Shown here: positions 7,239 through 38,464 of the stretch, in pieces
Layout of the letters: every line of letters starts with the position of its first letter
Numbering within the stretch: position 1 is the first letter of the stretch
Source: Bacteriovoracaceae bacterium
Lineage (GTDB): Bacteria; Bdellovibrionota; Bacteriovoracia; Bacteriovoracales; Bacteriovoracaceae
Length of the DNA stretch: 38,464 nt
Direction of reading: 5' to 3'
NCBI GenBank assembly: GCA_049599895.1
Contig: JBMYPC010000011.1
Span: 1-38,464, forward strand
Program-made: the position numbers and the translations under genes
Notes under the pieces: model-generated
Told to the model about the DNA's origin: nothing
Database searches by the model: none
What the model saw: only the letters and a program-made list of their open reading frames with translations

Positions 7239-8462
7239 CTAACCACCAAAGTCATCAAGCATGATGTCTTCTCTTTCAACACCAAGAGAGACAAGCATAT
7301 CAATCACACACTTGTTCATAATTGGAGGCCCACAGAGGTAATACTCACAATCCTCTGGGTTTGGATGATCTTTTAAGTATTCATCATGAAGGACTTGGTG
7401 GATAAATCCAGTATATCCTTCCCAGTTATCTTCAGGAAGAGCATCTGAAAGAGCACAATGCCATGTGAAGTTATCGTTTTCTTTTTGAATGGTATCAAAA
7501 TCTTCAACGTAGAACATTTCTCTTTTTGAACGAGCACCATACCAAAAAGTCACTTTTCGGTCGGTCTTGATTCTTCTGAACTGATCAAAAATATGAGATC
7601 TCATCGGTGCCATCCCTGCTCCACCACCAACAAAGATCATTTCTTTTTTAGTGTCTCGAGCAAAGAATTCCCCAAATGGGCCTGAGATAGTGACATCATC
7701 TCCTGGCTTTAAATTAAAGATATAAGATGACATTTTCCCTGGAGCAACATTAGGAAGTCTTGGTGGAGGAGAAGCAATCCTTACATTAAGCATGATAATT
7801 CCGCGCTCCTCAGGATAGTTGGCCATTGAATAGGCCCTAATCGTCTCTTCGTCTACCTTTGATCGGTATTGCCAAAGATTAAAGGTATCCCAATCTCCTC
7901 GATACTCTTCTTCAACATCAAAGTCTTTATAGTCAATATCAAGACCAGGAGGTCTTTCAATTTGGATATAACCACCAGCTCTAAATGGAACCGCTTCCCC
8001 AGCTGGAAGCTCAAGAACAAGTTCTTTAATAAAGGTTGCAACGTTATGATTTGATCGAACTTTACAGTTCCACTTTTGAACACCAAAGACCTCTTCAGGG
8101 ACTTCAACTTCCATATCTTGTTTTACAGCAACCTGACATGAAAGACGGTCACCTTCTCTGGCCTCTCTTTTTGTAATGTGACTCAGCTCAGTTGAAAGGA
8201 TATCTCCCCCACCATCGAAAACCTTAACCTTACACTGGGCACAGGTTCCACCGCCACCACAAGCTGATCCCACAAAAATTTTGTTATCAGCAAGGACACC
8301 AAGAAGTTTTCCACCTGGAGAAACTTTAAGTTCTTTTTCTCCATTAACTTTAATTGTCACTTCGCCAGAAGGAACAAGCTTTGATTTTGCCACTAAAATT
8401 ACCGCCACCAACGCTAGGACGATAAGAGTAAACATTAAAACACCTGTTACGATAACTTCCAT
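7239..8462 (-). CDS. nqrF: Na+-translocating NADH:quinone reductase subunit F
   Basis: [12 protein letters not shown] 2Fe-2S motif, RAYSMAN FAD motif, [16 protein letters not shown]-terminal DDFGG. Confidence 0.98.
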
Positions 8463-8535
8463 TATCTATAATCCTTTATATTGTTTTTAATTTTTATATT
8501 TTTACATTCCACTTATAAGGACCTTAGTTTCGCTA

Positions 8536-9153
8536 TTAAAGCTGAATCCCCGAAAAGGAAAGAAAACCAATCGCCATAAGCCCAACAGTAATAAAAGTGA
8601 TTCCTAATCCCTTTAATCCATCAGGAACATCAGCGTATTGAAGTTTTTCTCTAATACCAGCTAATGCCATAATCGCTAATGCCCATCCTACACCAGCACC
8701 AACTCCATAAACGATACTTTCAGAGAATGTATAATCTCTTTCTACCATAAAAAGAGAAGCACCAAGGATGGCACAGTTCACAGTAATAAGAGGGAGGAAG
8801 ATTCCAAGCGCTGAATAAAGAGCTGGAAAAAACTTATCAAGTGTCATTTCAAGGATCTGAACAATCGCAGCAATAACCCCGATGTAACTGATAAGACCTA
8901 AAAACGTAAGGTCCATTTCAGCAAGAGCTTCAATTCCCGTCCACTCAAGGGCACCTTTTTTAAGTAGCAATTTATAGATCAAGTTGTTCACAGGAACAGT
9001 CACAACCTGAACAACAATAACCGCAATCCCTAAACCAATTGAAGTGCTCACTTTCTTTGAAACCGCTAAGAAAGTACACATCCCTAAGAAAAACGCTAAG
9101 GCAAGGTTCTCAACGAAGACTGCTTTTAAGAATAAACTGAGATAATGTTCCAT
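8536..9153 (-). CDS. nqrE: Na+-NQR subunit E
   Basis: [42 protein letters not shown]. Confidence 0.97.
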
Positions 9154-9184
9154 ATATATTTCCTTAAAAATTCTTTAAATTTTA

Positions 9185-9811
9185 TTAAGCTTGGACCCCG
9201 TGTTCCACTTGATCTTTTTTGAATGTTCTTAGTCCCCAAATGAAAAAGCCAATTAAGAAAAAGGCACTTGGTGAAAGTAAGAACATCCCATCGGCTTGAT
9301 ACCAACCACCATCTTTAGCAAGTGGAAGAATAGTCACTCCTAATAACTTTCCGGATCCAAGGAGCTCTCTAAAAACAGCAACAAAGATCAGAACGATACT
9401 GTAACCAACACCGTTTCCAAAACCATCGAGCATACTCATGAGAGGATTATTTTTCATGGCGTAAGCTTCTGCACGCCCCATAACAATACAGTTTGTAATG
9501 ATAAGACCGATATAAACCGACATACTTTTGGCCACATCATAAACAAAGGCCTTAAGAAGCTGGTCGGTTAAAATCACAAGAGATGCGATAATTGTCATCT
9601 GCGCGATGATACGAATACTTGATGGAATATAGTTTCGAATGAGGCTGACAAAAAACCCTGAAAAACTACAAACAAGGATAACGGCAACAGACATAACAAG
9701 TGCCGCTTCAAGCTTTGTGGTAACAGCAAGAGCCGAACAGATCCCAAGAATCTGAAGAGCAATTGGGTTGTTGTTAAAAACCGGATCAAATAAAACTTTT
9801 TTTACACTCAT
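9185..9811 (-). CDS. nqrD: Na+-NQR subunit D
   Basis: [36 protein letters not shown]. Confidence 0.97.
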
Positions 9812-9838
9812 AATTTTATTCTCTTTATATTTGTATAT

Positions 9839-10633
9839 TTACAGTGAAGACACTGTGTTTTTCGTTCTATACTTCTTTAAGAATGGTCCAAAACCTTCTT
9901 CGCCCATCCAATACTTAATCATTCCAGTCACACCGTTACAGGTAAGAGTTGCTCCTGAAAGACCATCAATTTTGTATTCTTTATTGGCAGTATTATCTGT
10001 GACACTTCCTTTAATAACAGAAAGGATAGGGTTAAAGCTTTCGTCATAAACTCTTTTGCCTTTCCACGAAGCTTGCCACTGGGCATTCTCAATCTCTCCT
10101 CCAAGACCAGGAGTTTCACCATGCTGATAGAACCCAATCCCTTCGACAGTTGTTGTGTCTGTTGAAAGAACAAGAAAACCATACATCGTCGACCAAAGAC
10201 CCTTTCCATACATCGGAAGAATAATCTGCTTTACAGTTTCTCCTTCTTTAATAAAGAAAACCTTTGAAAATCGCTCCCTTTTTTTAATTGAAGCATAGTC
10301 TTTCTCAGAAGGAATTTTTGTATTGAGTTTAGGATCAGAAGCCGCAGACATTTGATCGTAATTATCTGGGTTCATCTCTGTGTTGTACTGACCAGTTGAA
10401 AGATCAACGATCTTAGTTTCAACAACTGAGAAGGCTCTTTCAATTTCTTCTTTGCTTGCTGATTTATTCTCAAGTAGTCCGGCACTAAGAAGAAGATTCT
10501 TTTTCACATCAAGTTTTTTATTTTGTTCTTGTAAAGGCTTCAAAGAAACCGCTGATGTCGAAACCATTACTGAACAAAAAATACAAAGAACTCCAGCGAC
10601 AATAATTGTCCCTAACGTACTATCCTTTTGCAT
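9839..10633 (-). CDS. nqrC: Na+-NQR subunit C
   Basis: [31 protein letters not shown] (FMN-threonine motif). Confidence 0.97.
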
Positions 10634-11825
10634 TTCTAAGCTCCCTTCTTTTTACGTTTGCATCCACAACAAAATAATCAATAAGCGGTGCAAAAGTATT
10701 GGCAAATAAAATTGCTAGCATAATCCCCTCAGGGAAAGCTGGGTTAATAACTCTTACAAGAACCGTCATGACTCCAATGAGGGCCCCATAAAACCACTGA
10801 CCTTTTAAGGTCATTGCTGAAGTCACTGGATCCGTGGCCATAAAGACCATACCAAAAGCAAAACCACCAAGAACCAGGTGCCAAGCAGGGCTTACCATGA
10901 ACATTGGGTTCGTTTCTGATCCCACCATATTAAGAAATAATGAAAAGACGATCATTCCAAGAAGAAGACTTACCATCGTTCTCCAAGACCCAATTCCAGT
11001 TGCCACAAGATACCCTGCACCTAAAAGACAAGCGAGAGTTGAAGTCTCACCCATTGAACCAGGCATTAGCCCAAAGAAAGCTTCCCACCAGGTCCAAGAA
11101 ACGGCATCAATTCCACCAAGAGCGGCTTGTCCTAAAGCTGTCGCTCCTGTGTAGCCATCAACTGCGTACCAAACCGCGTCCCCTGAAATTTGAGCAGGAT
11201 AAGCAAAGTATAAATAGGCTCTTGATAAAAGAGCGATATTAAGAAAGTTCTTCCCAGTTCCACCAAAAATCTCTTTTCCGACAACAACACCAAAAGAGAT
11301 TCCCACAGCAACCTGCCAAAGAGGAATTGTTGGAGGGAGAATTAAAGGAAAAAGAAGTCCCGTAACCATGAACCCTTCGTTCACTTCGTGCTTACGGATG
11401 GTTGCAAAAAGGACTTCCCAAAAACCACCAACAACATTTGCCACGATAAAGATTGGAACAAAATAAATAGCCCCAAGGATAACGTTTGCAAAAATGTTCG
11501 CTGGATCGTGAATAAGTCCGAAGGCAGCAAATAGAGTTCCTCGCCAACCGTCAATCGCTGCTCCTCCGTTAGCAATAACAGAGTTTGCTTGATACCCAGT
11601 ATTGTAAAGAGCCCACAGGATACATGGCATGAGGGCCATGGCGACAGTTACCATCATTCTTTTAAGATCAAGTCCATCTCTTAAGTGAGTAGAACCTTTA
11701 GTGACAGATGAAGGTGTGTAAACGAAAGTATCAAGTGCTTCATAAAGTGGGTAAAACTTTTCGAATTTCCCACCATGTTCAAAATGCTTTTCTTGCTTAT
11801 CTAAAAAATCTCTTAAAAATTGCAT
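10620..11825 (-). CDS. nqrB: Na+-NQR subunit B
   Basis: [31 protein letters not shown] (FMN site), FMATDPVT; start placed at ATG 11825 just after the nqrA stop. Confidence 0.97.
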
Positions 11826-11829
11826 GAGC

Positions 11830-13173
11830 TTAACCTTCCTTTTCAATCAATGTGAGATTTTCTCTTAAAATCGGTCCGTAATCAGTTTTTCCAGGGCAAA
11901 CATAAGTACAAAGAGCGAGATCTTCTTCATCAAGCTCAAGACAACCAAGGGCCTGAGCTGATTCAGTATCGTTAGTGATCAGTGCTCTTAAAAGTTGAGT
12001 TGGAAGAATATCAAGAGGCATAACCTGCTCAAAGTTTCCAACCGGAACCATAGCTCTTGGAGAACCGTTAGTTGTTGTATTGAAATTGAACAGCTTATTA
12101 GGGATCAATTTTGAGAGGTAGATACTCTTCACAGAGAACTTATCAAGTCCTGGTGAATGCCATCCTAACAACTCTCTTGCCCCACCCTCTGGGATAATTG
12201 TGACTTGAGTGTGAAACTTTCCAAGATAAGGATATTCCTCGCTGGCAGTTCGTCCTGCTAAAACAGAACCTGAAATCATTCTGAAACTTCCTTCATGAAG
12301 TTCTCCACTAAGGGCTTCATGAAGATTGGCCCCAAGCTTAACTTTAACAAGTCTTGGCTTTTTTGCTCCAGTTCCAGAGATTGCAATCACTCGATCCGTC
12401 CAGATCTTTCCTGTACTTGCAACTGCACCAATTGAAATCACATCTTGGTAACCAATATGCCAAACCGTTTTATTAGCACTTACAGGGTCAAGAAAATGAA
12501 TATGTGTTCCAACGTTTCCAGCTGGATGCACACCCTCAAACTCTTCCAATTGAATTTGCTCATCAGAGCGAACTTCAATATCAGAAAGTTTCTCACGGCA
12601 AACGAAAACTTTCCCCTCAGTTAACTTCTTAAGAAGCTTGATGCCGAGTTGAAAATATTCGCTATAACCTTTGATCACAACCGCAGGATCAGCTGCCAAT
12701 GGGTTTGTATCAATACAAGTAACAAAAATAGAATGAGGAGTTGAACCCACTTCAGGGGCTTTTGAAAAAGGTCTTGTTCGAAAAGAAGGCCATAGACCAG
12801 AATCGATAAGAAGCTTTGTGAGCTCTTCAGTTGTGTAGTCTTCAGGGTTTTTACTGATGTAAGAATCGTAGCTATGAAATTCATTGCTCTGATCTTTTTC
12901 AATCACTAAGTTTTGAAAAACCCTTCTCTCACCTCTTTGAATTTTTACAACTTTTCCAGATGCCGGTGCTGTGTAAAGAACACCTTCAACTTTTTTACAT
13001 GAGAAAACCGGCTGACCAGCTTTAACTGTATCGCCTTCTTTCACAAGCATGGTTGGCTTCATTCCAATATAGTCCTGTCCAACGACAGCAACATGCTTTG
13101 AATCAAGAACATCTTCTAAGAACTGCTCTGGTACACCTTTAATGGGTAAGTCGAGACCTTTTTTAATTCGCAC
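11830..13173 (-). CDS. nqrA: Na+-NQR subunit A
   Basis: [52 protein letters not shown] 7 nt before GTG 13173. Confidence 0.97.
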
Positions 13174-13236
13174 GATTGCGCCTCCGATCAATTAATGTCT
13201 TGGGTAAATCACTTACTCTTTTATTTTGATTTAAAT

Positions 13237-27105: not shown

Positions 27106-30100
27106 ATGATGGCAAAAGAGAAAAAGTTCACATTCATGCAATGGATTTTCCGTTTGGGATTTTTTCTCATTCTTGTCAGTTGTAATCCTCTTGAACAAGT
27201 TCAAGATGCTACCACGGAAGCAGAAGAAAACGTTGTCGATGGTGGAACAGCTCCAGCAGAAATTAGTGTTGTTCAAACAATCAATATTCTTGAAAACACT
27301 TCATCAGCTGACATTAGTCTCTACGCCAAAAATATTACAAGTGCAGGAAAACCCTGTTCAAGCTATATCAGTTTCACCTCAACAAATTACGACGTGGTAA
27401 ATCCCTACCTCATCAGTGTTTGGGGAAAAATGCCAAGCTGTAAATTTAAAATTGATCCGATTTTTAATGCCAATGGAATTGCCTATCTCACAGTTAAAGC
27501 AGCTTCAAAAACGAAGTCAGTAACAAAAAATGTTTTGGTTAATTTTATCGCAACGAATGACCCCCCTAGCTTTCCACCAATTTTAAACTATGGAATGACA
27601 GAAAGTACTCTTAGCGCCCAAACCTACATACCGGCTTTCAATCTCAATATTTCTGACGACTCTCAACTTAACTGTAAAAACTCTGTTAAAGTGACTTCAG
27701 ACAATCCCACTCTTTTCTCTGAAGATTCAATTACAATTTCAGGAGACTATAATTACCAAGGCTGCTCTCTATCTCTTGCACCAACAATAGGAGAAATTGG
27801 CACAGCAGGTATTACTGTCGAAGTAGACGATGGCTTTTCAAAATTTTCAAGAACCTTTTTTGTAACAGTTCACAACATCATAGAATCTCCAACAATTTCT
27901 GCACCAAACGAAATTTCCATTGTTGAAGATACATCGAGTGAGGAAATCGTATTTATCACTCTCGATCAGGACGACCTCAAGAATTATGCTGCTGATATTA
28001 CAATCACTTCTAGTAACCTAGACCTCATTCGTTCTAGCGATACGAGTGATATTGATATTAAAGCAGATGGGAATCATTATGTTGCAACTCTAAAAGCAAG
28101 ATCAAATCAAACAGGATCAACAACCCTTACTGTTAAAATAACAGATCCATCATCGTCTAATCCGAAGACCACAATTGAAGAAAAGACGATAGACCTTAAC
28201 GTCTCTGCCATTAATGACACTCCAACAATTAGCGATATTCAAGATCAAAATTCACTCGAAGACATGACTATCAATGCTCTTACCTTTACAATTGATGATC
28301 CCGATGACTCTTTAGACTGCTCATCTAGTCTTTCAGTCTCAACTTCAAATTCATCTGTTGTAGAAGCATCGTCTATTCTGTTTTCTGGAACTGCACCAAA
28401 CTGTAATATGAGTATTACACCTGTAACCAACGCAACGGGAAGTTCCGTTATCACTATCACTGTAAGCGACGGCAATTCAAATTCAAGCGATAGCTTCGTT
28501 GTAAACTTCTCAGGAGAGAATGATACTCCAACAATGATCCCTCCAAGTGATATTGTGATCAATCAAGATCAAGGACCTATTCAGTATTCATTTAAGATTT
28601 CAGATAGCGATAGTTTTATCACTTGCCCAATCAATGTAACGGCAAGCTCGTCCAATACCGCCCTTCTCTCAAACGCAAAACTCTCAGTCTCCGGTGGAAC
28701 CATTGATTGTGAGTTAACTCTTGAGACAGAGGCCAATAAATCAGGAAAAAGCGTCATTACTCTTACAGTCTCAGATGGCATCACTTCTAACAATTACCTT
28801 GTCAATCTCACGGTGAATATCGATGAGTCTTATACTGCTGATGACTTTACTCTCTCAAATACCGAACATCTTGAAGTGATTAATGGAAGTATTCGTTTAA
28901 AATACACTGATACCATTCATAACTCCACTGAAGACTTTAATCATGCAAACGCCACTCTTGAAAATATCACTTATTCAAATAATTTCCTCACGATTGATAC
29001 AACTTCAGCTTCAGAAGAACTCAACTCCAACTGGGCCCCCCAGTGGGCCAATCTCATTGCCAATTGGAAGTTTAATGAAAGCTTTCTTGTCAGCATGACT
29101 GTGGACCAAGTTCAAGAAAGCCGAAATGCTCTTCATGGAACTCCCATCGATGGAATCGCTTCAACTCGACTTTCAAGAATCGGAGGCTATGCCATTTCCT
29201 TTTTAGGAGGAGACGGTCGAGTTGATCTTAGCAATCCAGCAAGCCTCAATGACCTTAGTCTCTTTTCGGCTCTCGTTTGGATTAATCCCAGTGATTATGG
29301 AGAAGGAGGAGCCGGAAGAATTTTTGATAAAAACGAAAGGTTTCTCTATCTCGACGGCACTAATAATCGTCTTTGCTTTCAACAAAACTTTTCTACGACG
29401 AATGGACTTTGGTGTACGCTGACTAACAGTTTAAACGCCCATTGGGGAGACTGGTTTCAGGTCGGTCTCATTTATGACAGTAGCTCAGTTTCAAATTCTC
29501 CAAGTTTTTATCTCAATGGAGAACCTGTTACCAGTGCTGCACTTGTTAGTCCCGTAGGAACAATTTCATCTGATGCTGCAAGTTCTGCTCTCATTGGAAG
29601 CAACAACACTCAATCAGCAGACTATAATGGACTTATTGATGATCTTCTTCTCTGGAATGTTAATCTCAATGCAGACGAAGTAAAAAGAGTCTACTTAGGA
29701 CAAAAATCAAAGTTCACCGGAATTTATACTTCAAGAGTTCTCGATCTAGGATCAGTTGATGATTGGACATCTCTAAGTTTAATCACTCCCATCCCCTTCT
29801 CTAAAGAGCTTCCAAACACAAGTGAAACCAGTACTCACTACAGCGAACTTGAAACCAATAGTCTTCTTCTTTCTCTTGAAGGGCTTTGGCACTTTAACGA
29901 GAGCGCTTTAAACAGTGTTATCGCAACACATGACTTTGATGACTTTAGTAATAACGACCTTTACGCCAATGAATCAGGTGGAGTGTCTCTCACCTCTAAA
30001 GGACTCTTCTCTGGTGCCATTAGCTTTGATGGTACGGACGACTTTCTTGAAGTTTCCGATTCAAATGAACTTGATGTAAATCTCACTAGCCGCTTTACGA

Positions 30101-31206
30101 TCTCTGTTTGGTATAAAGTGACAGAAGGAGATAATGGGATTGATCAGACGCTTTTTGGGAAATGGAATCCAACAGGCAATGACCGAAGTTATCGCTGTCA
30201 TCTAACTTTTTCAACAACCAATGAAATTCAATGCTCGGTAAGTTCAAATGGAGTGACAGAGACCTCCGTAGAAGTTCTTCCCACAATTGATAATCGTTGG
30301 CACAACCTGGTTTTTAACTACACCGGAAGTCAAATTCACCTTTATCACGATGGTGAGCTTCAGCAATCAAAGAGCTATTCAAGTGGTGTTTATAATGGAA
30401 CTCAAAATCTTGAAATCGGAAGATCGAATCTTACCGATGGAGAATACTTTCCAGGCCTTATTGATGAAATGGCGATCTGGTCGAGATCCCTCACATCCTA
30501 TGAAATTCGACAACTCTACAGAAGAGGGGCCAATCGAATCTCCTATCAAGTCAGGTCTTGTGATGATGCCGCCTGCCTTGGAGAAACCTGGCAAGGTCCA
30601 GATGGTACAAGTGCGACATATTTCTCAGAAATTCATAACTGCCTAAGCCCTAGTGCTGATCAATGCCAAAGTGGCCCACGCTCACAAAATTTAGACACTT
30701 TGTTCAGCCGCTATAGTGGTTTTGCCACAGCTCCTAATGCACGCTACTTTCAATATAAGCTCATTATGGAATCTGACGACTCGCAAGATGTCTGTGACAA
30801 TAACGATGACAATGTCTTTAATGAAAAATGTCTTCCGGAACTTTCAGAACTTAGTATTGAACCAGATGATCACTATTATGCAGGAAATCCCTATGTCACC
30901 CTCAAGTCTTCGGCTCGGCATAGTTATACAAGTATCACTTCAATTACCGACACCGGATCAACTCTTGGTGTCGCTTGTCAGCGATATTATCAAATCTCAG
31001 AGGATGGGGTGAATTACTCCTATTTCAACTCCCCGAACTGGCTAAGTGCAACATCAATAGCAGAATCTTTTTATCCAAATACACTAACTTCCACTAATTT
31101 GAGCTTTTTCAGTGCCGGAGAACTCTCTATAAGAGTCTATTTTGGCGCAACTGGCAATCAAGGACATTGCCAACTTGATCAAGTTGACTTTACAGGCACC
31201 CTATAG
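27106..31206 (+). CDS. Large lipoprotein with cadherin/Ig-like repeats and two LamG (concanavalin A-like) domains
   Basis: Lipobox ILVSC; repeats bounded by NDxPT/PS motifs; two W.FNE...F.G..D...W.H/Q...F.GLIDD/E..W LamG signatures; true start may be a downstream ATG. Confidence 0.88.
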   Translation: MMAKEKKFTFMQWIFRLGFFLILVSCNPLEQVQDATTEAEENVVDGGTAPAEISVVQTINILENTSSADISLYAKNITSAGKPCSSYISFTSTNYDVVNPYLISVWGKMPSCKFKIDPIFNANGIAYLTVKAASKTKSVTKNVLVNFIATNDPPSFPPILNYGMTESTLSAQTYIPAFNLNISDDSQLNCKNSVKVTSDNPTLFSEDSITISGDYNYQGCSLSLAPTIGEIGTAGITVEVDDGFSKFSRTFFVTVHNIIESPTISAPNEISIVEDTSSEEIVFITLDQDDLKNYAADITITSSNLDLIRSSDTSDIDIKADGNHYVATLKARSNQTGSTTLTVKITDPSSSNPKTTIEEKTIDLNVSAINDTPTISDIQDQNSLEDMTINALTFTIDDPDDSLDCSSSLSVSTSNSSVVEASSILFSGTAPNCNMSITPVTNATGSSVITITVSDGNSNSSDSFVVNFSGENDTPTMIPPSDIVINQDQGPIQYSFKISDSDSFITCPINVTASSSNTALLSNAKLSVSGGTIDCELTLETEANKSGKSVITLTVSDGITSNNYLVNLTVNIDESYTADDFTLSNTEHLEVINGSIRLKYTDTIHNSTEDFNHANATLENITYSNNFLTIDTTSASEELNSNWAPQWANLIANWKFNESFLVSMTVDQVQESRNALHGTPIDGIASTRLSRIGGYAISFLGGDGRVDLSNPASLNDLSLFSALVWINPSDYGEGGAGRIFDKNERFLYLDGTNNRLCFQQNFSTTNGLWCTLTNSLNAHWGDWFQVGLIYDSSSVSNSPSFYLNGEPVTSAALVSPVGTISSDAASSALIGSNNTQSADYNGLIDDLLLWNVNLNADEVKRVYLGQKSKFTGIYTSRVLDLGSVDDWTSLSLITPIPFSKELPNTSETSTHYSELETNSLLLSLEGLWHFNESALNSVIATHDFDDFSNNDLYANESGGVSLTSKGLFSGAISFDGTDDFLEVSDSNELDVNLTSRFTISVWYKVTEGDNGIDQTLFGKWNPTGNDRSYRCHLTFSTTNEIQCSVSSNGVTETSVEVLPTIDNRWHNLVFNYTGSQIHLYHDGELQQSKSYSSGVYNGTQNLEIGRSNLTDGEYFPGLIDEMAIWSRSLTSYEIRQLYRRGANRISYQVRSCDDAACLGETWQGPDGTSATYFSEIHNCLSPSADQCQSGPRSQNLDTLFSRYSGFATAPNARYFQYKLIMESDDSQDVCDNNDDNVFNEKCLPELSELSIEPDDHYYAGNPYVTLKSSARHSYTSITSITDTGSTLGVACQRYYQISEDGVNYSYFNSPNWLSATSIAESFYPNTLTSTNLSFFSAGELSIRVYFGATGNQGHCQLDQVDFTGTL

Positions 31207-33269: not shown

Positions 33270-33508
33270 AGACAACGGCCCTGCATGACAAACTGATCAT
33301 AAAGTGATCGAACTTCATCAACAGTGTACCAAAATTCAGAATATGACTTTCCAAACATTTTGAACCTGTAAACTTCCTGAGAAGGATGTTTTTCAATCGT
33401 ACAAAGAGGAGAAAAACTCGCAACATCACGTGATTGAACTTCTTGCTTCTCAGCACTTGAACAACTGACAAAAAGAAAAAGTCCTAGTGTAAATAATATT
33501 GATTTCAT
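33266..33508 (-). CDS. Small hypothetical lipoprotein
   Basis: GGAGG RBS; lipobox LFVSC; RDVAS motif of the kind common in Bdellovibrionota exported proteins. Confidence 0.75.
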   Translation of the reverse strand: MKSILFTLGLFLFVSCSSAEKQEVQSRDVASFSPLCTIEKHPSQEVYRFKMFGKSYSEFWYTVDEVRSLYDQFVMQGRCL

Positions 33509-33584
33509 TATTCCTCCACAAAAAATATACCTTAATTATTATCCTAGAAAATCTCATTATTTAAAATCGGAAAAAAGCTCTAGG

Positions 33585-34019
33585 TTAAAATTCAAAATGA
33601 AATGTAACTGGTCCGTCGTTAAGTATTGAGACTTTCATATCTGCCCCAAATCGTCCGGTCGCCACAGAACAAAACGATCGCATTTTTTCACAAAACTGAC
33701 TAAAAAGCTCTTGCGCCTTATCAGGACTTAAAGAGAAATCAAAACTTGGCCTATTTCCCTTTCTTCCATCCCACGAAAGAGTGAACTGACTGATGATTAA
33801 GGCCTCGCCTTTAACATCTTGAATTGATAGATTCATTTTTTGATTTTCATCTTCGAAAATGCGGAGTTTTGATAGCTTCTCAGCTGCTTTTTCAACATTT
33901 GAAAGAGTATCGCCTGTCTCCATGCACACAAGGAGAACAAATCCACTATTGATTGAACCAACAATGTTGCCATCGACTAATACAGAACTCTCAAGGGATC
34001 GTTGAACAACGACTTTCAT
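33585..34019 (-). CDS. dtd: D-aminoacyl-tRNA deacylase
   Basis: MKVVVQR, LRIFED, SQFTL, GNRPSF, NDGPVT. Confidence 0.96.
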   Translation of the reverse strand: MKVVVQRSLESSVLVDGNIVGSINSGFVLLVCMETGDTLSNVEKAAEKLSKLRIFEDENQKMNLSIQDVKGEALIISQFTLSWDGRKGNRPSFDFSLSPDKAQELFSQFCEKMRSFCSVATGRFGADMKVSILNDGPVTFHFEF

Positions 34020-34031
34020 GAAATGACTTAA

Positions 34032-34379
34032 TTAACGACTAGGCTTCGTTTCGTTACCTGAGTCTAGTGGATCAATAATATCCGTGAGACGAATGCCATA
34101 CTTCTCATTCACAACAACAACCTCACCTTTTGAAACTAATCGTTCATTAACAAGAACTTCAAGAGGTTCACCAGCAAGCTTCTCAAGCTCAAGAACTGAT
34201 CCCTGTCCAATTTGAAGAAGTTCTCGAAGTGAAATCTCTGTTCTTCCAAGTTCGACCCCTACATTAAGAGGGACGTCTAGCATAAAATCAAGTTTATGAA
34301 GATCATCTACGAGTTCTTGTTCAGGATTTCCTTCACTTGCCGTATTCTCTTCTTCAGCAGCACCAGACATAAGATCCAT
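34032..34379 (-). CDS. fliN: Flagellar motor switch protein FliN
   Basis: LDVPLNVGVELGRT..LL.IGQGSVLELEKLAGEPLEVLVN..GEVVVVNEKYGIRLTDI; AGGAG RBS. Confidence 0.93.
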   Translation of the reverse strand: MDLMSGAAEEENTASEGNPEQELVDDLHKLDFMLDVPLNVGVELGRTEISLRELLQIGQGSVLELEKLAGEPLEVLVNERLVSKGEVVVVNEKYGIRLTDIIDPLDSGNETKPSR

Positions 34380-34556
34380 TAAAAACTCCTTCGAAATTCA
34401 CTGTGATGACAACAAGACTCACCATCTTCATCATAATTTATCGTACAAAAAATTACCTGATCCTTTATAGTGGGAAATTGTTTCCCCCTACTCTCAGCTT
34501 AGATAAATCAAGCATTTAAAGGCATAATTTTAGAGGATTACCAAAAAGGAAAGTTC

Positions 34557-34673
34557 ATGTGCCAGAAATTACGAGAAGTTTTCTCAATTTTTATCACAAT
34601 CGTTAAAAATGGTGATGTCACCAATGAAAATCTTAATTGGTTAAGAAACACAATCCTTGGTCTCTTTAAATAG
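34557..34673 (+). CDS. Putative 38-aa amphipathic small protein (MCQKLREVFSIFITIVKNGDVTNENLNWLRNTILGLFK)
   Basis: AAAGGA SD 6 nt before ATG; TAGATA-17-CATAAT promoter-like sequence at 34500-34528; fills the gap up to the convergent TIR gene. Confidence 0.5.
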   Translation: MCQKLREVFSIFITIVKNGDVTNENLNWLRNTILGLFK

Positions 34674-34686
34674 AAATCGAATGGCC

Positions 34687-36249
34687 CTAGAGAGTTCCTT
34701 TATCATAGATGATGGCTTCAATAATTTGTTCCATTTGCCTTGAGACGAGACTTCTCAAATAAGACTCTTTCATTCCCTCTTTTTTCAAATTAATTTCAAT
34801 TAAAGCCATAGGTCTAGACTTTCGAGATTCTAAAAAAGATTCTTCAAACTCAAACTCTTGCTGTGAAGCAATCTCTTGAATTTTTGAAGAAGCTGAAATC
34901 AAATTTAAGTTCTCTGTCTTTTTCAATTCGATAAAAGAAGACTCTCCAAGCTTTACTGAAAATTGAATGATCACTCCTCCATCAGAGTCGATATTGGCAA
35001 TCGATCCACTTGGAGTGTAGCGATAAGGCATCAAAGTGGCAGTATTTCCATAAATATGTCCTTCAAACATTTTATAGAGATTAACCCAAATGCTTCTTGA
35101 GGTTTCCAAGTTTGGAGCATCTTCAGTTTTAAACTCAACATAAAACTTTTTGCGGCTCTTTTCTTGATCTGCGATTAGCTCACTTAAAAGAAAGAACTTT
35201 AAAAGGAAAAGATTATGCATTTCAAACTTATTCCAGGGTTTTTCAATCAATCCCTCTCGACTTTCAATAAATGCTTCTCCGTTGCGCTGAAGGATTTGTT
35301 CATGAAGAAGCTTCATTTTTGAAGAACTTAGTCCCTGAACAAACTCGAGTTCAAGAAAGGCCTTATCAAGAGTTCCCTCCACAAGTTCAATCGAATTCAG
35401 TTCAAGACCCTTGTATTTTTTCTTTTTATTTTTGAGGAGAGCTCTGGTCTCATTAGATTTTTGGCGCTTAGAATTGAGCTCAAGTTTTGCATAAAAAGTG
35501 AGAAGAATCACACCAAAAAAAAGGTATATATAGGCTTTGTTTCTTACAAAAAGGTTTGGCTTAGTATTTATTTCTTTTTCGGGCTTTACCTTCTCTTTTT
35601 TCACCTTTTTTTTGGTTAAAACGATTTGAGATTCTTTTTCTATGTTTTTAAGAGTGAAGTTTGTCTTATTTCTTTCTTCAAGACTCTCGAGTTCCTTCTT
35701 TTCTCTTTCCTGTTTTTTGATAAACTCGAGCCCTTGCTCTTCCTCTTCCTTGGCTTGAGTTTCGAATTTCTTAATAATGTTTTCAAGTTGTTCGCTTGGC
35801 TTAGTATTAATTGTTTCAGTGACTCTTGTTTGTTGCCCAACACCAGAGAGATATTCGTGTAAAGTATGGACAAGTGATTCAAAATAGCTTTGAGAAGTTC
35901 CATCAAAAGCATCAAGCCAATGAGTATTACAAAGATAATAATCCATTGCTTCTGTAGGCATTGTTTGATCAATACGAAAAGGGATTACAGGAAGTTTTGC
36001 ATTAACAGCTCGATCCACTTCTTTTAAAACTTGTTCCGACTCGTTAGAAAAATAACTAAAGACGATAACAAAAGCATTTGCAGATCGGATAGCCTCCAAT
36101 ATTGAACTCGCGTAATGTGTTCCAGGGAGGATATCTCTTGGTGCAAACCAACAAGAAAGACCTTTAGATTCAAGGTATTCGACTAACTCATTAACAAGGA
36201 ATTTATCCTTTGAAGAGTAGCTAATAAATACGTGTTCCTGTACCTTCAA
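34687..36249 (-). CDS. TIR-domain protein with coiled coil, single TM and unknown C-terminal domain
   Basis: HVFISYSSKD, CWFAPRDILPG, AIRSA..FVIVFS..SNESEQVLKEV (TIR_2 with catalytic Glu); TM YIYLFFGVILLTFYA; TTG start with AGAGGA SD inside the upstream gene. Confidence 0.9.
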   Translation of the reverse strand: MKVQEHVFISYSSKDKFLVNELVEYLESKGLSCWFAPRDILPGTHYASSILEAIRSANAFVIVFSYFSNESEQVLKEVDRAVNAKLPVIPFRIDQTMPTEAMDYYLCNTHWLDAFDGTSQSYFESLVHTLHEYLSGVGQQTRVTETINTKPSEQLENIIKKFETQAKEEEEQGLEFIKKQEREKKELESLEERNKTNFTLKNIEKESQIVLTKKKVKKEKVKPEKEINTKPNLFVRNKAYIYLFFGVILLTFYAKLELNSKRQKSNETRALLKNKKKKYKGLELNSIELVEGTLDKAFLELEFVQGLSSSKMKLLHEQILQRNGEAFIESREGLIEKPWNKFEMHNLFLLKFFLLSELIADQEKSRKKFYVEFKTEDAPNLETSRSIWVNLYKMFEGHIYGNTATLMPYRYTPSGSIANIDSDGGVIIQFSVKLGESSFIELKKTENLNLISASSKIQEIASQQEFEFEESFLESRKSRPMALIEINLKKEGMKESYLRSLVSRQMEQIIEAIIYDKGTL

Positions 36250-38464
36250 AGTCTTTTCCTCTTAAATGAAAAATAGGATGTTGTAATTTATCTTTTGAAA
36301 CATAAATCTTTCCTATATAAGCACATTCAAATGACTCAACCAGCTCAGCATTAGCAAGGGAAGCAAACTCGAGAGTCGTATAAATCTGTCCTTGTGGAGT
36401 AATTGGCTCAATTCGGGCTGTTCGACAAATATGGGCTCCAACATATTGAGCTTTTGAGTTCATGAGTCCAGCTGACTTAAAAATGGGTCCCGCATGAACA
36501 GCTGTCCGAATCTGAACCGGTTGACTCAGACCACTTCGACTCCAAGGATGACCTTTAAGAGCTTCATTAAACTTTAAAGCAAAGATTCCAGTTTCCTCTA
36601 CACCTTTAAATACGAGATGTATGGCATCTCCCCAGGTATTAAAACTTAAAATATTAAATTTATATGACTTCATAATTTGATCAATCACATCTTGAATAAT
36701 TCTTTCATAAAGAACAAACTCTTGATCTTTTAACTTTGAGTAATTCACAGCATCCATAAAAAGGATTCCACGAGTTTCACTGCTTCCAGATTTATCATGA
36801 AGCTTTATATTCCCAATGAGATTAGGAGCACTCCTAAAAAAAGCTCTTCCTGTTTTTAAGTTCGTAAGATCAAAATAATCCACTTTGTGGCCATTTTTTT
36901 GCCAATGAGTCATAAAGTGTGAGGTTCCTCCTCGAGAAACCTTCCCTCCCTCAATCACAGAGGGGTTCCATACTGCAAGTGTTTGAAGAGTTGTATCCAA
37001 GTGGTCGGCCTTCATTTTAGCCAGTCCATACATAACCTTATTTGAAAAAGTAAAAGATTCATCTTTAAGATCAATACTCAAAGCCTTTAAGTTGATTAGC
37101 TTAACTTTGTCCTTAATGTTTTCAAATCTCTCAACCCATTCATCATTTTCTTCTGTTGACCAGCGCACACTTTCTTCAATAAATTGTTTTTCCTCGAATG
37201 GAATCAAGCAATAAACTTTGTTTCCCGCCTTTACCATTTTATCAATAAAGATAAGGTCAGCACCATTTGCAGCAGAACAATAACCAATACATGGCCCCAG
37301 TGAATCAATATATTTTTCAACCTTATCTTCAAGATGTTCAACAAGATCACTTGGAAAACGTGGAACCTCTCTATCCGGAGCATCTACTCGATGTCCTGAA
37401 AAAAGAATCACTTTAGGAACTGAAAGAATCCCCTCTATTTTATGTTTGTACTTGAGAGGAACATTAAGCTTCTCAATAATTAATTTCATATTTCGTCTTG
37501 TTGAATTGATATTGCCAAGATTGTCTGGATCGAGGTCAACACCTTTTTGAAACCAATAAAGAGCTTTTTGATAATTCTTTTCAAGAAGGTTTGCTTCCCC
37601 CATAGTAGCATAAGTCCAATATGTTGCCTGATCACTATTAATTTCATTCATACAAACTTTTTTGACTTCTCCTAAAATTTCTTGGCCCATCTCAGGTTTA
37701 TCATTAAGTTTGTAAAGAGTTGCAAGGTTAATTCCAGCCCATGTACTCTTGAACTTTTTATAGCTCATTCCATAAATGGCGATTGACTTATCAAAATGAC
37801 TTTCTGATTTTTCTAATAACCAAAGATCCTTATAAGTTCTTGCGAGGAGACCAATGGTTTCTTCATCAAGATTCTGGTCTTCTTTAAATAGCTTCTCAAG
37901 CATTCGGTTGGCTTCTTTGGTTAATCCTAATCGTGCAAATGTAAGCCCCATTAACTGTCTGACTCTAAGATTTTCGGGATAATAATGAGAGGCTTCTTTG
38001 AGAATATCAAAAGCAAGAAGTGGTTCTGCTGCAGAGAGAGCTTTCTCAGCAAAGGCAGTATAAATATCATTTTTTTTAAGCCACTTTGCTTGAGAACGGT
38101 TATGCCATAGGTAATAAACCTGCTCGACATCAACTGTTTTTCCTTTAATGAATTCAACAAGGTTTTTGGCAACTGATGGATCATCAGTTTGCATTTTATC
38201 AGGAGGAAGTTCAATATTATAACCAAGACTTAAGATCGTTCTGATGGTTTCCATAGCCGTTTTTCGATCATAATCTTTTTCCACCTCAGGGAGTTCTTCA
38301 TAGGGAACAAGACAGGGATGAGTTTTTTTATTATCATCTCTTTTTTTACCATAGACCCAACCTTGAGACATTCTTTGAGAGCTCCAAACTTCATGAGTGT
38401 TCTTGGCTAAAAACTCAGTGAGTTCAACAAGCCCTTCATCAAGTTTGATGTCATGGTTATTTAT
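36221..38464 (-). CDS. RyR-repeat + TRAFs-binding/TPR (DUF4071-like) + SLOG-like + class III nucleotide cyclase protein (5' end outside window)
   Basis: Frame open to the window edge; LAKNTHEVW..QGWVYG..RDD..KTHPCLVPYEELPE.EK.YDR (RyR); GLLARTYKDLW/GINLATL/YWTYATMGEA; ILFSGHRVD..SAANGADLIF; LFMDAVNYSKL..TWGDA..RTAVHAGP..TARIEP. Confidence 0.88.
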   Translation of the reverse strand: MNNHDIKLDEGLVELTEFLAKNTHEVWSSQRMSQGWVYGKKRDDNKKTHPCLVPYEELPEVEKDYDRKTAMETIRTILSLGYNIELPPDKMQTDDPSVAKNLVEFIKGKTVDVEQVYYLWHNRSQAKWLKKNDIYTAFAEKALSAAEPLLAFDILKEASHYYPENLRVRQLMGLTFARLGLTKEANRMLEKLFKEDQNLDEETIGLLARTYKDLWLLEKSESHFDKSIAIYGMSYKKFKSTWAGINLATLYKLNDKPEMGQEILGEVKKVCMNEINSDQATYWTYATMGEANLLEKNYQKALYWFQKGVDLDPDNLGNINSTRRNMKLIIEKLNVPLKYKHKIEGILSVPKVILFSGHRVDAPDREVPRFPSDLVEHLEDKVEKYIDSLGPCIGYCSAANGADLIFIDKMVKAGNKVYCLIPFEEKQFIEESVRWSTEENDEWVERFENIKDKVKLINLKALSIDLKDESFTFSNKVMYGLAKMKADHLDTTLQTLAVWNPSVIEGGKVSRGGTSHFMTHWQKNGHKVDYFDLTNLKTGRAFFRSAPNLIGNIKLHDKSGSSETRGILFMDAVNYSKLKDQEFVLYERIIQDVIDQIMKSYKFNILSFNTWGDAIHLVFKGVEETGIFALKFNEALKGHPWSRSGLSQPVQIRTAVHAGPIFKSAGLMNSKAQYVGAHICRTARIEPITPQGQIYTTLEFASLANAELVESFECAYIGKIYVSKDKLQHPIFHLRGKDFEGTGTRIY

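Follow-up and report, generated by a model that had tools for sequence, protein, structure and literature searches.

What would a membrane-bound TIR protein do beside a nucleotide cyclase? The question is raised by two overlapping genes at one end of contig JBMYPC010000011.1 (assembly GCA_049599895.1) of a Bacteriovoracaceae bacterium, for which an earlier note on this DNA had proposed an undescribed second-messenger system combining parts of the Thoeris and Pycsar systems. The window analysed here is the whole contig (C11, 38,464 nt, from a genome of 3.27 Mb); its sequence ends at position 38464, and genes upstream of the pair lie outside it. Judging from its domains, the pair is a variant of the TIR/TPR-S (Thoeris-like) messenger systems that stands outside the described Thoeris and Pycsar types. 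We consider it probable that the TIR would make a cyclic ADP-ribose (cADPR) isomer, which would be sensed by the TPR-S part of the partner protein and control its cyclase, be it for signalling or for defence. A two-tier messenger relay, from TIR signal to cyclase, for sensing of the envelope or surroundings is our tentative preference, and use of the same wiring in defence is a possibility that we hold with less conviction.

Both genes lie on the minus strand. Gene 1 (36221..38464, open reading frame of 747 codons, open at the contig end) encodes RyR, TPR-S, SLOG and class III cyclase domains, and gene 2 (34687..36249, 520 aa, TTG start) encodes a predicted single-pass TIR receptor. The 29 nt overlap described earlier (36221-36249) was confirmed, as was the placement of the gene 2 TTG start and its Shine-Dalgarno-like AGAGGA (36257..36262, minus strand, 7 nt upstream of the TTG) inside gene 1. 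The earlier description requires correction in that gene 1 is truncated at its 5' end. Full-length relatives measure 741-790 aa and start approximately 7-8 residues ahead of the visible frame, so the contig end cuts off only about 7-8 N-terminal codons, and the whole protein would have about 755 aa. The named homologues closest to it come from Bacteriovoracaceae (42-44% identity), and other homologues reach 51-52%.

The domain order reported for gene 1 stood for the RyR, TPR and cyclase parts, and is supported by indirect profile evidence for the SLOG part. The TPR-S or ASK1-like TPR solenoid (residues 128-348; 37421..38083, minus strand) was delimited from Pfam, alignment and an ASK1 profile match. 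Specifically, Pfam TPR-S matched residues 152-250 (E 2e-17, 64.5 bits against a cut-off of 27.6) and was found in 45 of 45 relatives, MAP3K_TRAF_bd matched residues 183-331 (E 1e-11), and the TPR profile matched the ASK1 structure 5ULM (E 5e-5). Residues R209, K212, N246, Y282 and W283 of the solenoid were invariant in the alignment of relatives, and an NCBIfam scan gave weak TPR matches only. Among the 13 gene 1 copies of the same family, RyR was lost in four and SLOG in two, never both together, and TPR-S and cyclase were kept in all 13. In other relatives, the N-terminal RyR was replaced by GAF, nSTAND1 or cyclase-NB-ARC.

The RyR (Repeat12) domain occupies residues 1-85 (38210..38464, minus strand; Pfam E 7e-30). 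According to the RyDEP preprint (PMC13232231), H75, W78, H100 and D117 are the residues by which phage RyR-domain proteins hydrolyse 2'cADPR and 3'cADPR or sequester them; they correspond to H24, W27, H49 and D66 of gene 1. An ungapped BLAST alignment of RyDEP residues 74-109 with window residues 23-58 (E 2e-9) covers H24, W27 and H49; D66 was assigned to D117 by ungapped extension beyond it. All four pocket residues are kept in 42 of 45 aligned relatives; among the RyR-bearing rows collected from loci, 48 of 57 have them. Independently of gene order, these residues connect gene 1 with signals made by TIRs.

For residues 349-538 (36851..37420, minus strand) profile searches gave no direct match to Pfam or PDB. 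The region carries SGH, SAANGAD and GGT motifs, and in the GAD at 401-403 the G is present in 100% and the D in 97% of 152 rows. Its profile matched a plasmid SLOG-patatin protein in its N-terminal domain (E 2e-28), which in turn matched Pfam YAcAr at E 5e-4, below the cut-off. HHalign aligned the region with DprA at E 0.004 over 133 columns with the motifs in register, against E 0.008 over 62 columns for a TIR control. Pfam YpsA had no matches in 61 genomes of the phylum or five other genomes, hence there was no YpsA comparator alignment. We assign the region, with moderate confidence from these profile links, to a YpsA-like SLOG Rossmannoid domain. The SLOG profile alone matched 929 clusters at E 1e-30, by which measure the family is large. 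Two other members were observed outside gene 1. A viral contig encodes a stand-alone one (L143:3881-4537, E 2e-34), a candidate anti-TIR-signal protein, and a Rhodococcus plasmid block (L142:88-5671) encodes a WD40 protein, a TPR-S protein and the SLOG-patatin, which fits published TPR-S systems.

The class III nucleotide cyclase domain (residues 562-737; 36254..36781, minus strand) was recognised by its profile, which matched class III adenylyl and guanylyl cyclases in PDB (best E 5e-9); the Pfam cyclase had no match in gene 1 itself and was matched in 38 of 45 aligned relatives. The metal-binding pair D571 and D613 and also R684 were invariant in 45 of 45 protein-search rows. The residues that specify the base and act in the transition state are Lys, Asp and Asn in canonical adenylyl cyclases. 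In gene 1, by alignment with 3ET6, the base-specifying positions hold N609, which is invariant, and Q673, for which most relatives have N; C680 takes the place of the transition-state Asn (S in 53, N in 9, C in 7 and T in 1 of 70 copies). Because these residues are unusual, the product of the cyclase is not predictable. One Logan sequence (P0026) that appeared to be a cyclase-TIR fusion was rejected; its cyclase end departs from the family, and it was read as a frameshifted pair.

In gene 2, the TIR domain with its catalytic Glu and the membrane helix were borne out. The TIR domain (35893..36231, minus strand; Pfam TIR_2 at residues 7-118, E 5e-21) is the sole TIR_2 match in the genome; all 15 aligned TIRs share its Glu77, and the best PDB matches of the TIR profile are animal TIRs. 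Residues 140-238 (35536..35832, minus strand) form a linker of varying length among relatives in which 41 of 99 residues are K or E, and the coiled coil named earlier may be this low-complexity linker. A membrane helix is predicted at residues 240-258 (35476..35532, minus strand) with a modest mean hydropathy of 1.6, and a helix is also present in relatives. No cyclic nucleotide monophosphate (cNMP)-binding domain was matched by Pfam in gene 2. The outer part comprises about 260 residues after the helix; no close relative was found by word search (one such search was limited to proteins of 595-2000 aa) or in Atlas (best 0.80), and the outer-domain profile had no PDB match. Within it, a degenerate YARHG-like segment (35194..35352, minus strand) was aligned with the partner protein of genome G116, which has a clear Pfam YARHG (E 5e-11). 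YARHG (PF13308) was matched in one of 10 aligned outer domains, the window protein not being matched; in a leave-one-out comparison the window segment scored 21.9 bits against the profile of the other nine, and the best of 200 shuffles scored 6.4. The C-terminal outer domain (34690..35157, minus strand) is tentatively and weakly Amidase_3-fold-like, with the His of the SIH motif absent. HHalign gave E 7.5e-4 over 122 columns in a comparison picked by eye with a trimmed alignment; the untrimmed alignment gave 0.012, a four-row subset 0.033, and reversed or unrelated controls 0.26-0.64, and there was no Pfam or PDB match. The YARHG domain has been hypothesised to bind peptidoglycan (PMC3355149). 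The outer part is perhaps a YARHG-like segment joined to a possibly inactive amidase fold, and perhaps a peptidoglycan binder.

The proposal had been made dependent on a general linkage of cyclase homologues to TIR genes, and such linkage was found. Gene 1 is present in 13 of 237 family genomes, the window genome included, and a TIR gene lies directly downstream in 10 of the 12 others, with gaps of -8 to +21 nt; the flanking genes of these loci differ between genera. A wider set of 71 loci was derived by an alignment-based scan from the best 80 of 615 matches, an earlier single-sequence contig scan having matched nothing. TIR genes were adjacent to gene 1 in 33 of these loci and lay elsewhere in the locus in 8, and 30 loci showed none; for the 46 loci whose flanks measured 3 kb or more on both sides, the corresponding numbers were 25, 7 and 14. 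The two sets overlap partly and are rich in kin, so that their counts are not additive. There were 1-10 TIR_2 matches per genome in six genomes checked, and because these are so few, adjacency by chance would, by our own arithmetic, be well under 1%. Synteny is conserved in Pyrinomonadaceae.

The TIR partners belong to at least three unrelated types, and their labels change eight times on a quick tree. They include a TIR-helix protein whose outer domain varies, a second TIR clade whose outer domain is long and unassigned, and a soluble TIR-DUF4062 protein beside nSTAND1-TPR. A hydrophobic helix was found in 23 of the 33 adjacent partners, whose outer parts were TPR, Sel1, WD40, CHASE2, YARHG or without assignment, and six of the 33 lie on the opposite strand in divergent or convergent orientation. 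Several of these blocks can be described individually. At L013:4044-5954 and about 15 Pyrinomonadaceae-type loci, the second TIR receptor type has a 400 aa outer domain without Pfam match, alpha/alpha-barrel-like by eye. A four-gene block at L056:4890-10447, L058, L068, L070 and L073 consists of gene 1, TIR-DUF4062, nSTAND1-TPR and a secreted protein without assignment. At L061:2185-4143, a gene with CHASE2 and cyclase directly precedes the TIR and gene 1, so that this block has two cyclases.

Seen from the TIR side, a helix follows the TIR at 57 of 80 metagenome loci of the gene 2 TIR clade. Other neighbours of this clade are TrkA-N and RyR proteins (five confirmed by Pfam) and, at seven loci, a SLOG-SLATT-type cluster. 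The clade of receptors is therefore broad, with gene 1 one among several outputs, several of which again have RyR or SLOG. The TrkA-N and RyR proteins beside same-clade TIRs (L151:2657-4621, L182:2649-4499, L200:1934-3709, L203:1757-3697 and L220:2113-3798) have hydrophobic N-termini and look like TIR-signal-gated channels.

Comparison with known systems places the pair near several of them. The layout of Thoeris, a TIR with catalytic Glu in one operon with a separate effector gene, is present. No PADLOC model matched gene 1, the PycC models included, and gene 2 was matched through its TIR alone; the PADLOC version dates from 2023 and is older than Thoeris types V-XI. In PADLOC and Pfam, gene 1 matched none of the described Thoeris effector types (SIR2-SLOG, Macro, caspase, SLATT, CMP hydrolase and others). 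One close system is Thoeris VIII, in which a cADPR-making TIR, ThsB, acts with ThsI, whose TPR is the proposed cADPR sensor (bioRxiv 10.64898/2025.12.03.692087). In both systems one gene encodes a catalytic TIR and the other an enzyme with a fused TPR; however, ThsI has a CMP-hydrolase domain and kills, whereas gene 1 has a class III cyclase with RyR and SLOG and its TIR is predicted to be membrane-bound. The main text of that preprint makes no mention of an adenylate or guanylate cyclase, its 29 putative types being shown in a figure and table outside that text. The TPR-S systems (Burroughs and Aravind, 2020, as summarised in 10.1101/2023.05.26.542521; Pfam PF20308) likewise have a TPR-S core beside TIR and YpsA-type SLOG partners, and the plasmid TPR-S/SLOG-patatin locus has the same SLOG family as gene 1. 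In contrast, the summary lists TIR, YpsA, patatin, LSDAT, calcineurin, caspase, OB and transmembrane partners and no cyclase or RyR, and the primary 2020 paper may differ.

For YpsA-family SLOG contexts, the legend of Figure 1 in a 2019 study (PMC6459960) abbreviates adenylyl/guanylyl cyclase among YpsA architectures or neighbourhoods, but the text of that study is without TPR, TIR or RyR and its supplement text had no match. RyDEP and the phage RyR sponges share the Pfam family and the four ligand residues; RyDEP, however, is a stand-alone phage anti-defence protein, and the RyR of gene 1 is part of a host cyclase protein (PMC13232231). Pycsar and Pucsar also place a class III cyclase with both metal Asp beside a TIR (bioRxiv 10.64898/2026.08.12.744502), but their cyclase is described as upstream in the pathway and their TIR as carrying a cNMP-binding domain, neither of which applies here, and no cNMP-binding TIR or 3TM effector was found with gene 1. 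The pair resembles animal Toll-like receptors in its outer sensor, single helix and inner TIR, and the ASK1 regulatory region in its ASK1-type TPR; the topology of gene 2 is nevertheless opposite, with the TIR N-terminal and likely enzymatic, and we claim a resemblance of layout, not descent. A parallel receptor-like ParA-helix-periplasmic system has also been described (bioRxiv 10.64898/2026.10.19.760177). The RyR-TPR-S-SLOG-cyclase architecture is not described in passages of that preprint or of PMC8195603, PMC7159879 and PMC9503650, and no description of it was found in the literature searched, with figures, preprint supplements and the defining 2020 TPR-S paper outside the scope. The conserved linkage and intact catalytic residues agree with the earlier view that the pair is neither canonical Thoeris nor canonical Pycsar. 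The word "undescribed" is too strong, since TIR-linked TPR-S with YpsA-type SLOG is in print and YpsA with cyclase stands in the 2019 legend.

From the domains, residues, linkage and topology predicted from sequence, we infer the biochemical steps, ligand, product and outcome as follows. The outer domain of gene 2 would sense a cue from the envelope or surroundings and cluster the receptor, and the cytoplasmic TIR would then cleave NAD+ to a cADPR isomer. The pocket of TPR-S is the likeliest place for gene 1 to bind this isomer; RyR and SLOG would offer secondary sites for it, or buffer or erase it. Binding would turn on the class III cyclase dimer. The cyclic nucleotide would act on general cNMP-binding proteins of the cell and not on a dedicated killer; cNMP-binding genes were found at three of 71 loci, so that a dedicated receiver near gene 1 is scarce, and elsewhere the window genome has five cNMP-binding proteins (one CRP-like) and two other cyclases. 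Of the two directions offered by the earlier note, that from TIR signal to cyclase is favoured, and its choice of SLOG as the sensor is doubtful, SLOG being lost in copies that kept TPR-S and cyclase. More specifically, such proteins could be Toll-like single-pass bacterial receptors using TIR-made cADPR for ordinary signalling, where the RyR/TPR-S/SLOG-gated cyclase converts it to a second, possibly non-standard cyclic nucleotide and the cue is peptidoglycan in a predatory family; we regard this extended version as possible, though less likely than not.

Several observations weigh against a signalling relay of this kind. Genomes G118 and G138 carry gene 1 without an adjacent TIR, and the loci without a visible TIR amount to 30 of 71 (14 of 46 with wide flanks), three of the 30 carrying a cut partner piece upstream. 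The loci are related by descent and are not independent. The link is rare from the TIR side, with a TPR-S neighbour at two of the 80 metagenome loci and at none of the 20 with wide flanks. The assignment of the outer domain is weak, and a cyclase without the canonical Lys, and in most relatives without the transition-state Asn, may be slow or make another product. Furthermore, the patchy presence of gene 1 at differing chromosomal sites also fits a mobile defence cassette.

Anti-phage defence by the same wiring is the alternative to be weighed most closely. It would be a Thoeris-like type in which the membrane TIR detects phage at the envelope and the cyclase, as effector, drains nucleoside triphosphates or floods the cell with cNMP. 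A TIR with a TPR effector has been validated as Thoeris VIII and BcTir/Tpr, some TIR partners lie beside nSTAND1-TPR genes, and two of 30 relatives scanned have gene 1 as a fusion with nSTAND1 or NB-ARC-like domains. The occurrence in 13 of 237 family genomes, the SLOG-SLATT-type and TrkA-N and RyR neighbours of the same TIR clade, and the wide carriage of RyR domains by phages (292 records) point the same way. However, a defence-island signal was absent: at E 1e-10, PADLOC matched seven of 113 neighbours in the window and 21 loci, mostly generic domains as we judged them, and one of 56 neighbouring proteins at the same-family loci; gene 1 itself matched no model and the pair has housekeeping flanks. 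No gene 1 copy was found in plasmids at a coverage of at least 80%, the matches in viral contigs were to the RyR part alone (L105-L112, n=8, 46-66% identity), and the conserved synteny in Pyrinomonadaceae suggests long residence. The neighbourhood data lean towards general signalling, and the patchiness and STAND partners keep defence, which we hold to be possible, close behind.

The remaining alternatives change the wiring itself. Were the TIR to serve for docking, as TIRs do in animal Toll-like receptors, direct contact would activate the cyclase and a diffusible ADP-ribose signal would be unnecessary; translational coupling, which suggests stoichiometric co-expression, the reported BcTir-BcTpr complex (10.1101/2023.05.26.542521) and the animal TIRs as best PDB matches speak for this. 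We nevertheless consider it unlikely, as the catalytic Glu is invariant in 15 of 15 TIRs and the use of unrelated TIR clades, six of 33 on the opposite strand, is easier to reconcile with a shared small molecule than with a shared interface. Slightly less likely still is that gene 1 chiefly limits or erases the TIR signal, with RyR as glycosidase or sponge, SLOG as hydrolase and the cyclase as a low-activity nucleotide-binding or reporting module. H24 and D66, the equivalents of the RyDEP catalytic dyad, and the non-canonical cyclase residues would suit such a role, but RyR is missing from four and SLOG from two of the 13 family copies, all of which keep the cyclase Asp pair and Arg, and among eight RyDEP homologues assayed none hydrolysed and six bound the signals (PMC13232231). 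The earlier note's other direction, with cyclase product acting on the TIR, here taken as an NAD+-depleting effector, draws on the Pycsar/Pucsar layout of class III cyclase and TIR. We judge it unlikely, and the least likely of the alternatives: the TIR protein lacks a cNMP-binding domain, as do the partner TIRs scanned, so the pair is not Pycsar; in addition, no PycC model matched gene 1, and the ADP-ribose-type sensor domains sit on the cyclase protein, not on the TIR protein.

Characterised bacterial TIR signals, as far as found in the literature, end in a killing or growth-arrest effector. If the relay from TIR to cyclase is true, it would link one messenger system to another and could provide an example of TIR chemistry at work outside phage defence; it would also be, within the literature searched, the first case of a host that employs a RyR domain and an ASK1-type TPR to sense cADPR and so control an enzyme. 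In gene 1 the RyR repeat and the ASK1-type TPR belong to a single soluble enzyme whose read-out is simple, which makes testable both the response of RyR Repeat12 to cADPR-type molecules and the ASK1-like TPR as a nucleotide sensor. The RyDEP authors raise the question of a cADPR-type ligand for animal ryanodine receptors (PMC13232231).

As for the sequence context, a public contig, possibly from the same source sample, spans window positions 33500-38402 with 0 differences. The GC content of gene 1 (0.36) and gene 2 (0.35) is near that of the genome (0.377), so there is no sign of recent transfer. Scans of promoters (16 vs 13.5) and terminators (3 vs 3.0) were at chance level. Downstream of the pair lie the housekeeping genes fliN, dtd and one of rpsD type (Pfam); fliN (34032-34379, minus strand) is isolated from other flagellar genes, directly follows the pair and has dtd next to it. 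Elsewhere in the window, the plus strand at 27106-31206 encodes a possible adhesin of 1366 aa, which begins like a lipoprotein and contains two LamG domains and, judged by eye, repeats of Ig/cadherin-like segments, and the minus strand at 7239-13191 carries the nqr genes of the Na+-translocating NADH:quinone reductase with apbE nearby.

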